Notes under the pieces: generated by a model | Seen by the model: only the letters and a program-made list of their open reading frames with translations | Databases searched by the model: none | Told to the model about the DNA's origin: nothing | Shown: one piece after another, positions 12,596-13,048 of the stretch | Layout: each line of letters begins with the position of its first letter | Position numbering within the stretch: the first letter of the stretch is position 1 | Program-made: the position numbers and the translations under genes | Assembly: GCA_030429145.1 (NCBI GenBank) | Contig: JAUIDC010000001.1 | Location: 510,001-542,000 of the forward strand | From: Candidatus Saccharimonadota bacterium | GTDB lineage: Bacteria; Patescibacteriota; Gracilibacteria; Absconditabacterales; Absconditicoccaceae | Reading direction: 5' to 3' | DNA length: 32,000 nt

Positions 12596-13048
12596 ATGGT
12601 TAACATGAATGTAGCACTTATTGGAGCTTGAATCGCAGTTGGTTTAGCGGGTGTCGGTGTGGCGCTTGGTGACATGTATCTTGCGAGAAGAGGTATTGAT
12701 GCTCTTGGGAAGAACCCTAACTTGAGCGGAGGTATCATGGTATTTATGATTCTTGGGCTTGCGCTTGTAGAGTCTGCAGCGATTTACGGATTGATTATTG
12801 CATTCCAGATCCTTGACGGAGGTGCAACGCTTTCTGCAGTAAATGGTATCGGTGCAGGTCTTGCTATCGGTGTTCCGGGTCTTGCAGTAGCGATCGGTGA
12901 AGGTCGAGTTATCGGGCAGGCTATCGATTCGTTCCTCAGAAATCCTGAGACGAGAGGTAAGATCATGACAAATATGATTTTGTCAGTAGCACTTATCGAG
13001 TCTATTGCGATCTACGGTCTGATCATCGCATTTAGACTTCTTGGGTAA
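12596..13048 (+). CDS. atpE: F-type ATP synthase subunit c, tandemly duplicated (two hairpins, 150 aa)
   Basis: It has two homologous halves. Each carries a G-rich helix 1, a polar loop (GKNPN / LRNPE), and a helix 2 with LALVESAAIYGLIIAF or VALIESIAIYGLIIAF. The start at ATG 12596 is recovered by reading the TGA at 12629 as Gly (LIGA-G-IAVG). Confidence 0.85.

Follow-up and report, generated by a model that had tools for sequence, protein, structure and literature searches.

The fused c gene and its genetic code

A 32,000-nucleotide stretch of contig JAUIDC010000001.1 (referred to here as the window, with all coordinates counted from its first position) contains a cluster of ATP synthase genes. 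They are arranged on the plus strand in the order nhaA-like gene, atpB, a fused gene for the rotor subunit c (atpE), atpF, an open reading frame (ORF) of 146 residues, and atpA. The subject of this report is the product of atpE. A textbook F-type c subunit is a single hairpin, and the size of the ring that it forms is an emergent property that is not readable from the gene. The usual form has about 70-90 residues, and the window protein, with 150 residues and two hairpins, does not conform to it. The features of the gene are as follows.

12596..13048, plus strand: atpE, fused two-hairpin c subunit, 150 residues; the TAA stop is inside the end coordinate
12605, plus strand: alternative ATG start of atpE, giving 147 residues
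12629..12631, plus strand: in-frame TGA, read as Gly12 (code 25); the only interruption in the c ORF
12596..12820, plus strand: hairpin 1 ("type 1"), residues 1-75, from alignment with 1yce, 3zk1 and 4bem and family conservation; Asp26 (GAC 12671-12673), loop K39-N40-P41, Glu59 (GAG 12770-12772), Ser60, Ala61 and Tyr64
12821..13045, plus strand: hairpin 2 ("type 2"), residues 76-150, from alignment, family conservation and hairpin typing; Glu102 (GAA 12899-12901), loop R115-N116-P117, Glu135 (GAG 12998-13000), Ser136, Ile137 and Tyr140

The initial annotation of this DNA described the gene as a 150-residue tandem duplication of an F-type c hairpin, and profile searches bear this out. The protein contains two stretches that match PF00137 (E 9.6e-31, 106.3 bits against a cut-off of 24) in Pfam. 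In NCBIfam it scores above the cut-off of TIGR01260 (60.6 versus 43.95 bits), and the F-type c models score higher than the V-type K models. The two hairpins are roughly 47-50% identical to each other. The R/K-N/Q-P loop and the carboxylate in the middle of helix 2 are present twice, as KNP with Glu59 and RNP with Glu135, and the two carrier Glu codons had been located exactly.

The window reads TGA as Gly (code 25). Stop-to-stop ORFs of at least 100 residues amount to 65,922 nucleotides when only TAA and TAG are taken as stops, compared to 31,242 nucleotides when TGA is a stop as well, and most of the large plus-strand genes hold 1-9 in-frame TGA codons. Of the 2,161 in-frame TGA codons in c genes from related loci, 1,686 are located in alignment columns with a Gly majority, against a background Gly frequency of 7.7%. 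The column of the window TGA is 82% Gly, and TGA is used at this position by 196 related hairpins too. These tests rule out the reading in table 11, which gives a 129-residue ORF from GTG 12659.

They also bear on the possibility of an artefact, in which adjacent c genes or a pseudogene would have been joined through an assembly error or through read-through of a real stop. Table 11 does break the ORF at 12629, but TGA is a sense codon across the window and Gly in the related c genes. The junction between the hairpins (QILDGGATLSAV), where a real stop would separate two c genes, was checked and is unbroken, as had been noted initially. Moreover, hundreds of independent assemblies share the architecture, with identities of 45-91%, and an alignment of 121 sequences indicates strong constraint on both halves. 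The artefact explanation is effectively refuted.

The structure was modelled with AlphaFold2 on a relative, P0001, which is 91% identical to the window c protein. The model has a mean pLDDT (predicted local distance difference test) of 97.3. Its four helices (residues 5-36, 38-75, 78-112 and 114-146) are predicted to form two hairpins, with a two-residue turn between them. The closest structure is the double hairpin of Acetobacterium woodii c1 (4bem_J, template modelling (TM) score 0.86), followed by E. hirae NtpK and V-type c subunits (TM scores 0.80-0.84).

Relatives with two to thirteen hairpins

A protein search finds 578 matches. The best 120 are nearly all 146-151 residues long, and the named members among these 120 are Gracilibacteria, Absconditabacterales or Peribacteria. 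In the alignment of 121 homologues, both carrier Glu residues are invariant (121 of 121). The Ser next to the carrier Glu (Ser+1) is present in 117 sequences in hairpin 1 and 98 in hairpin 2, and the Tyr at +5 in 120 and 120. The position equivalent to residue 32 of the c subunit of Ilyobacter tartaricus is Glu in 83, Gln in 32 and Asp in 3 sequences in hairpin 1, and Glu in 115 and Gln in 6 in hairpin 2.

Among species-representative genomes, a scan gave 358 matching stretches, of which 80 were kept, corresponding to 78 loci (cited by L numbers). The kept loci are labelled Gracilibacteria, SR1/Absconditabacterales, Peribacteria, Patescibacteria or unclassified; among them are Vampirococcus lugosii and five records at chromosome level. 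A 2.5-kb contig, also kept, carries the label Sulfurimonas. The carrier Glu is present in all 380 aligned hairpins from the 78 loci, in proteins with 2-13 hairpins. Ser+1 is found in 306 of 381 family hairpins, Tyr+5 in 377 and Glu at position 32 in 282, and the position of Thr67 is Ala in 248, Val in 51 and Thr in 25 of the 381. The c gene, including both Glu codons, is under purifying selection, and the two-hairpin c is not peculiar to the window gene but clade-wide.

The number of hairpins in each c ORF was counted with a hairpin hidden Markov model across the kept loci. In the following, c2, c4 and so on denote proteins with that many hairpins, except for c1, c2 and c3 of A. woodii, which are names of subunits.

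2 hairpins: 52 ORFs
4 hairpins: 9 ORFs
6 hairpins: 19 ORFs
10 hairpins: 2 ORFs (L072, L080)
12 hairpins: 5 ORFs (L070, L074, L075, L006, L037)
13 hairpins: 3 ORFs (L011, L012, L044)

The proteins with 10-13 hairpins are single polypeptides of 755-1000 residues (900-1000 for those with 12-13), with all Glu residues kept, and are encoded in F-type operons of Gracilibacteria. The only c gene of the operon has 10 hairpins in L072 and L080 (Vampirococcus), and 12 in L070, L074 and L075. In L080 (Candidatus Vampirococcus lugosii, NZ_JAEDAM010000015.1), the c gene is the 10-hairpin ORF at 2361-4643. The c ORFs of 300-1000 residues were considered as read-through artefacts of imposing table 25 on genomes with the standard code. 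This was ruled out by the position of almost all in-frame TGA codons, which are inside the hairpins at Gly columns (91 of 93 in L006), and by the divergence of the hairpins.

The hairpins within one multi-hairpin protein are on average 47-63% identical (35-60% diverged), and hairpins i and i+2 are more identical to each other than adjacent ones. Strict alternation of types 1 and 2 is observed for 251 of 269 hairpins. In addition, circular permutation, with type 2 preceding type 1, is seen in 12 of the 53 two-hairpin genes (L016, L018, L023-L027, L032, L039, L041, L069 and L077, from SR1 lineages, human oral ones included), as expected if selection acts on an alternating ring. The alternation and the circular permutation together indicate that the conserved object is a ring of alternating hairpins.

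In the phylogeny, all hairpins of the family form one clade (50 of 50 bootstraps), with A. woodii c1 and c2 and the two halves of a Desulforhabdus protein (see below) outside it. The hairpin types are each monophyletic, in 42 and 27 of 50 bootstraps. Monophyly by position in the gene failed (0 of 50) because of the circularly permuted genes, while monophyly by type held. The simplest history consistent with these trees would be one ancestral duplication that produced the two types, after which the two-hairpin module was amplified and, on occasion, cut again in the other register.

Some operons have more than one c gene. A second multi-hairpin c gene is located upstream of a in L006, L011, L012, L037, L047, L061, L067, L073 and L020, in the arrangements 13|a|6, 12|a|2, 12|a|6, 6|a|4, 6|a|6 and 4|..|a|4. 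In Peribacteria L007 (CP060226), L004, L034 and L014 (CP060225), tandem Fo sets precede one alpha...beta set. These are a-c2-b and then a-c1-b, but in L014 the second set is a-c2-b. They recall the Chloroflexus enzyme with two a subunits and two stalks (PMC12002316).

Ion sites and the coupling ion

The ion-site residues were initially mapped by hand. An alignment with MAFFT of both hairpins with the c subunits of I. tartaricus, Fusobacterium nucleatum, A. woodii and spinach, with the sequences verified in the Protein Data Bank, gives the same correspondence. Asp26 and Glu102 align with Gln32 of I. tartaricus and Glu32 of F. nucleatum, Leu57 and Leu133 with Val63, Glu59 and Glu135 with Glu65, Ser60 and Ser136 with Ser66, and Tyr64 and Tyr140 with Tyr70. 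Both halves therefore have the helix-1 carboxylate at the Gln32 position, the Ser at +1 and the Tyr at +5, as had been claimed. The Asp in hairpin 1, rather than Gln or Glu, is a minority state at position 32 (3 of 121). The position of Thr67 is occupied by Ala61 and Ile137, with no polar residue in either hairpin.

A rotor coupled specifically to Na+ would bind this ion at both sites through Asp/Glu(32), the carbonyl of residue 63, Glu65 and Ser66, with Tyr70 stabilising Glu65, and the neighbouring NhaA would be part of a Na+ cycle. The older Na+ rule comprises four positions (Gln/Glu at 32, the backbone carbonyl at 63, Glu65 and Ser/Thr66; PMC2838876), and residues 32, 63, 65 and 66 all fit it in both hairpins. 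The Tyr70 equivalent is also present in both. The Ser at +1, found in 306 of the 381 family hairpins, is replaced by Ala in the H+-coupled spinach chloroplast c in the same alignment. Glu32 together with Glu65 is the Na+ motif of F. nucleatum (PMC3692424), and both Glu102 and Asp26 align with Glu32 of 3zk1. Finally, a gene of the NhaA family adjoins atpB.

There are several observations, however, that argue against this assignment. In the full ligand set, Thr67 holds a Na+-coordinating water, and the residue at this position is polar in all predicted Na+ enzymes and aliphatic in H+ enzymes (Mulkidjanian et al. 2008, PMC2359735). The window protein has Ala61 and Ile137 in place of such a residue (Ser/Thr/Gln/Arg), and Thr is found in only 25 of the 381 family hairpins. 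The extra carboxylate is constitutively protonated and energetically equivalent to Gln, and it occurs in H+-driven enzymes too, those of M. tuberculosis and S. pneumoniae (Schulz et al. 2013, PMC3692424, section 16). The proposed likeness to F. nucleatum thus stands as to position, but a second carboxylate does not mark a site as one for Na+. The enzyme of M. acetivorans has the four residues, yet coupling to both ions is reported for it (PMC3692424). The adjacency of nhaA, which had been taken as a sign of Na+ bioenergetics, loses this meaning: it is found only in the window and the 91% identical relative (L002/L003) and in 0 of 78 other loci, and a Na+/H+ antiporter fits either ion.

A homologue of this c subunit has been assigned before. 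The Vampirococcus lugosii paper aligned one hairpin (Supplementary Fig. 6) and concluded H+ coupling (PMC8080830). This judgement counts against Na+, but the hairpin printed there is hairpin 8 of the 10-hairpin ORF, and a Trp stands where the family has Gly, TGA having been mistranslated. Only one hairpin out of ten, carrying Trp at Gly positions, was thus the basis of the published call on ion specificity.

The initial description of the sites as Na+-type is thus retained for the four-position rule and Tyr70, but not for the Thr67 position. Of all steps of the interpretation, the choice of coupling ion is the least certain. On balance, H+ or mixed H+/Na+ coupling is somewhat favoured. Physiological Na+ coupling is plausible but less likely, and the polar residue of the fuller published ligand set is missing; a rotor that is specifically Na+-coupled, with NhaA in its cycle, is likewise a minority possibility.

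The operon, the proposed rotor and known fusions

The other genes of the cluster are as follows.

10283..11647, plus strand: NhaA-like Na+/H+ antiporter gene; PF06965 Na_H_antiport_1, E 2.8e-22, 79.6 bits against 23.5; 3 in-frame TGA
11741..12568, plus strand: atpB, Fo subunit a (stator); PF00119, E 1.2e-26; ATG 11741, alternative GTG 11726
13076..13552, plus strand: atpF, Fo subunit b (peripheral stalk); NCBIfam F0F1 subunit B, best E 2.8e-16, below equivalog cut-offs
13576..14016, plus strand: 146-residue ORF, specific to the family, at the place where atpH (delta) would be expected; C-terminal motif ...IYKRSLQGDLNKLLD
14041..15576, plus strand: atpA, F1 alpha, the final atp gene of the window cluster; TIGR00962, 749.9 bits against 484; PF00006/PF00306/PF02874

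Subunit a contains the stator residue Arg206 (in LSNRLFGNMLAG), which aligns with the conserved Arg of the a subunits of Bacillus PS3 and chloroplasts. There is only one c gene in the window, between a and b, and the position of atpF is conserved in 75 loci. V-type membership is ruled out by the NCBIfam scores. The N-ATPase models (TIGR03322, TIGR03306, TIGR03321 and TIGR03324) all score far below their cut-offs, and the enzyme is therefore a canonical F-type. The N-ATPase gene order, beta-epsilon-Q-R-a-c-b-alpha-gamma, is not matched either, as subunit a comes first in the operon and an ORF separates b from alpha. The atpI gene is not present in the window operon.

The commonest order in the relatives is a, c(n), b, small ORF, alpha, a gamma-sized gap, and beta. 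In about 70 of them, the gap between b and alpha holds an ORF of 115-190 residues with the motif GEG.YYKRSLD.DL.KLL. The window ORF at 13576-14016 and nine orthologues have no match in Pfam or NCBIfam at E values up to 1, and this ORF is possibly a very divergent or replaced delta/oligomycin sensitivity-conferring protein (OSCP). The genes for gamma, beta and epsilon were not found anywhere in the window. No beta is present within at least 7 kb downstream of alpha in the window, L001, L013 and several other loci, and the atp cluster ends after alpha also in L001, L013, L015, L019, L022, L028, L030, L059 and L078. In SR1 HOT-345 (L032), beta is located 6.5 kb upstream, on the opposite strand. 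This sub-lineage thus has its atp genes at more than one place, and the missing F1 subunits are presumed to be encoded elsewhere in the genome.

In a Gracilibacteria/Absconditabacterales bacterium that uses code 25, the window atpE probably encodes the c subunit of a canonical F-type ATP synthase/ATPase, as a covalent dimer of diverged hairpins that would tile an alternating ring. With the carrier Glu kept in each hairpin, every protomer would have two working ion sites, and several protomers would assemble into the rotor. The sites would be located at the hairpin-hairpin interfaces and would alternate between two kinds, one centred on Asp26/Glu59 and the other on Glu102/Glu135, to be read in turn by the stator Arg206 of subunit a. 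The likely advantage of the fusion would be a genetically constrained stoichiometry and/or a simpler assembly of the ring.

A two-hairpin unit with sites at the hairpin interfaces implies an even number of sites per ring, as had been proposed initially. The accompanying proposal that the fusion would alter the ion/ATP ratio does not hold, since fusion with both sites intact does not change it by itself. The ratio would be the number of hairpins divided by three because no site is lost, while V-type fusions halve it. The ring probably consists of 10 or 12 hairpins, (c2)5 or (c2)6. This estimate is based on the relatives that encode what is presumed to be the whole ring as a 10- or 12-hairpin, strictly alternating polypeptide.

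With somewhat less confidence, the window c2 can be placed as the ancestral module of an undescribed bacterial series of concatenated F-type rotors (c2, permuted c2, c4, c6, and whole-ring c10, c12 and c13), to which the described species Vampirococcus lugosii would belong. All sites would be kept throughout the series, in two alternating types, and the window rotor would be (c2)5 or (c2)6.

Several observations weigh against the interpretation of the window c as a dimer that tiles an alternating ring. The c13 proteins do not show clean alternation. The multi-hairpin relatives come from metagenome assemblies, a few of them with identical hairpin pairs (L072, L075 and L080), and their exact repeat numbers could be mis-assembled. 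The ring size is inferred from the relatives and not from the window protein. As for the completeness of the enzyme, delta is assigned to the ORF at 13576-14016 by position alone, and the complete enzyme is assumed from the relatives, as gamma, beta and epsilon are outside the window. There may also be a second, unlinked c gene elsewhere in the genome.

If such a gene encodes a single-hairpin c, the two-hairpin protein could be a minor part of a hybrid ring, like c1 of A. woodii, with the bulk formed by the single-hairpin subunit. The closest solved structure is indeed A. woodii c1, some Peribacteria loci hold c2 together with a single-hairpin c (L004, L007 and L034), and the operon of L085 (described below) has c3 and c1. 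In the Peribacteria, however, the single-hairpin c is located in the second a-c-b set and not beside c2, and in most c2 loci a further c gene is absent from the surrounding 10 kb or so. In the window, the fused gene is the sole c gene of the operon, and both of its sites are intact, whereas hairpin 2 of A. woodii c1 has a Gln. Moreover, the circular permutation and the amplification based on c2 argue that c2 alone tiles the ring. A hybrid ring is considered improbable.

The known double hairpin most similar to the window protein is A. woodii c1 (4BEM chain J). It is also encoded in a bacterial F-type operon, consists of two fused F-type-like hairpins (about 16-18 kDa), and is the best sequence match (E 5.4e-16). 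It is present as a single copy in a ring with nine single-hairpin c2/c3 subunits (PMC9171764). The loss of one of its sites, mentioned in the initial annotation, is confirmed by the PDB sequence, in which hairpin 2 reads AVAQTTGIY and the carboxylate is gone. In comparison, the window c keeps both Glu residues and has no single-hairpin c linked to it. The two duplications are independent, as the proteins belong to separate clades (50 of 50 and 38 of 50 bootstraps). The E. hirae NtpK and eukaryotic V-type c subunits have the same four-helix double-hairpin fold, but with one ion site per four helices and only weak sequence similarity to the window c (E 3e-5). The hallmark of F/V-hybrid and V-type subunits, one carboxylate per four helices, is thus not found in the window protein.

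Fusions that keep all the sites are known in archaeal A1Ao c/K subunits, with 2 hairpins in Methanothermobacter thermautotrophicus and Methanobrevibacter smithii, and 13 in Methanopyrus kandleri (1021 residues; PMC2359735). The Gracilibacteria series of 2-13 hairpins parallels them in multiplying hairpins without loss of sites, up to proteins of the size of a whole ring, and its proteins with 10-13 hairpins look like bacterial counterparts of the 13-hairpin M. kandleri rotor. The archaeal enzymes, however, have the complete Na+ ligand set, while the window has bacterial F-type a, b and alpha subunits, and Ala or Ile at the Thr67 position. By this comparison, which was made through the literature and not with the sequences, the window c works like the site-retaining archaeal kind but is not a member of it by descent.

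Two further systems share individual features with the window protein. Hairpin 2 reproduces the E32/E65/S66/Y70 residues of the F. nucleatum c11 ring (3ZK1). The c subunit of that ring is one hairpin with Thr67, and the window c also differs from it in the Asp of hairpin 1 and in having no polar residue at 67. A single-chain c10 engineered by gene fusion from the c subunit of Bacillus PS3, with all carboxylates intact, gives a functional enzyme (PMC8809890). That fusion is artificial, with identical repeats and Gly-Ser-Ala-Gly linkers, in contrast to the natural, diverged hairpin types and native two-residue turn of the window protein.

The trait is not unique to the Gracilibacteria clade. A Desulforhabdus sp. 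protein annotated as 'ATP synthase F0 subunit C' (MDY0039864.1, 160 residues; L082 5536-6018) has two full E-E-S-T-Y hairpins, the complete Na+ ligand set, and is located upstream of atpI-atpB. Its duplication is independent, as its halves pair with each other in 45 of 50 bootstraps. The metagenomic locus L085 has a three-hairpin, three-Glu c (1673-2392) in a complete, canonical F-type operon with the order atpI-a-c3-c1-b-delta-alpha-gamma-beta, also from an independent duplication. No study was found of either the Desulforhabdus c or the L085 operon.

Other multi-hairpin proteins were encountered in these searches. In L084 (8001-8537), a c2 with all Glu residues kept adjoins a gene for subunit a, and F1 genes are absent from the vicinity. 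'Hypothetical proteins' of Asgard archaea (Promethearchaeota, Hodarchaeota) have 15 and 8 all-Glu hairpins with the motif IEALY, and separate V/A-type proteins have 10-12 hairpins with a QETQY motif; the proteins behind these entries are P0127 (1139 residues), P0166 (631), P0129 (1042) and P0130 (784). Multi-hairpin classes of about 245 and 318 residues, from an exhaustive search, have lost the Glu in some hairpins and represent different families.

A search of the literature for fused c subunits in Gracilibacteria, Patescibacteria or the Candidate Phyla Radiation (CPR) found no description. Two multi-hairpin clusters of Gracilibacteria carry a taxon name; both come from human oral taxa and are labelled 'hypothetical protein' (RAL57769.1, 524 residues; ATU05399.1, 521 residues). 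The known natural fusions have either lost sites, as in V-type enzymes and A. woodii c1, or belong to archaeal A-type enzymes. Site-retaining fused rotor subunits are therefore already known, but their occurrence in a bacterial F-type enzyme, as the base module of a concatenated rotor series, appears undescribed.

If this site-retaining F-type lineage holds, its rotor stoichiometry and ion/ATP ratio would be readable from the gene, with 10, 12 or 13 hairpins corresponding to 3.3, 4 or 4.3 ions per ATP, and it would be a target for cryo-electron microscopy and bioenergetics. It would also represent a natural experiment in alternating, non-identical ion sites, and it bears on the debated role of the ATP synthase in non-respiring CPR epibionts. 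The high ion/ATP ratio that comes with keeping all sites is better suited to making ATP when the driving force is low than to pumping against a steep gradient. As a practical matter, table 11, or a translation of TGA as Trp, leads to wrong calls of such genes, and their products enter the databases as 'hypothetical protein'.

The NhaA-like protein upstream of atpB has about 450 residues, including a charged insertion that is some 50 residues long (…KAKGDETSPQESSIEEEFLDIPDHAHKENVEDP…). Its GDD motif matches the two catalytic Asp residues of E. coli NhaA. Three genes follow atpA.

15690-16055: small membrane ORF, after alpha
16150-16473: RNHCP-domain protein, after the small membrane ORF
16510-18960: TrwB/TraG-like coupling ATPase, 816 residues, after the RNHCP protein

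Further downstream, a YcaO cyclodehydratase gene (PF02624, approximately 21714-23237) is preceded by two ORFs without a family match (19995-20741 and 20683-21717). The region 19995-23237 may be a biosynthesis cluster for a ribosomally synthesized and post-translationally modified peptide (RiPP) of the azoline kind.

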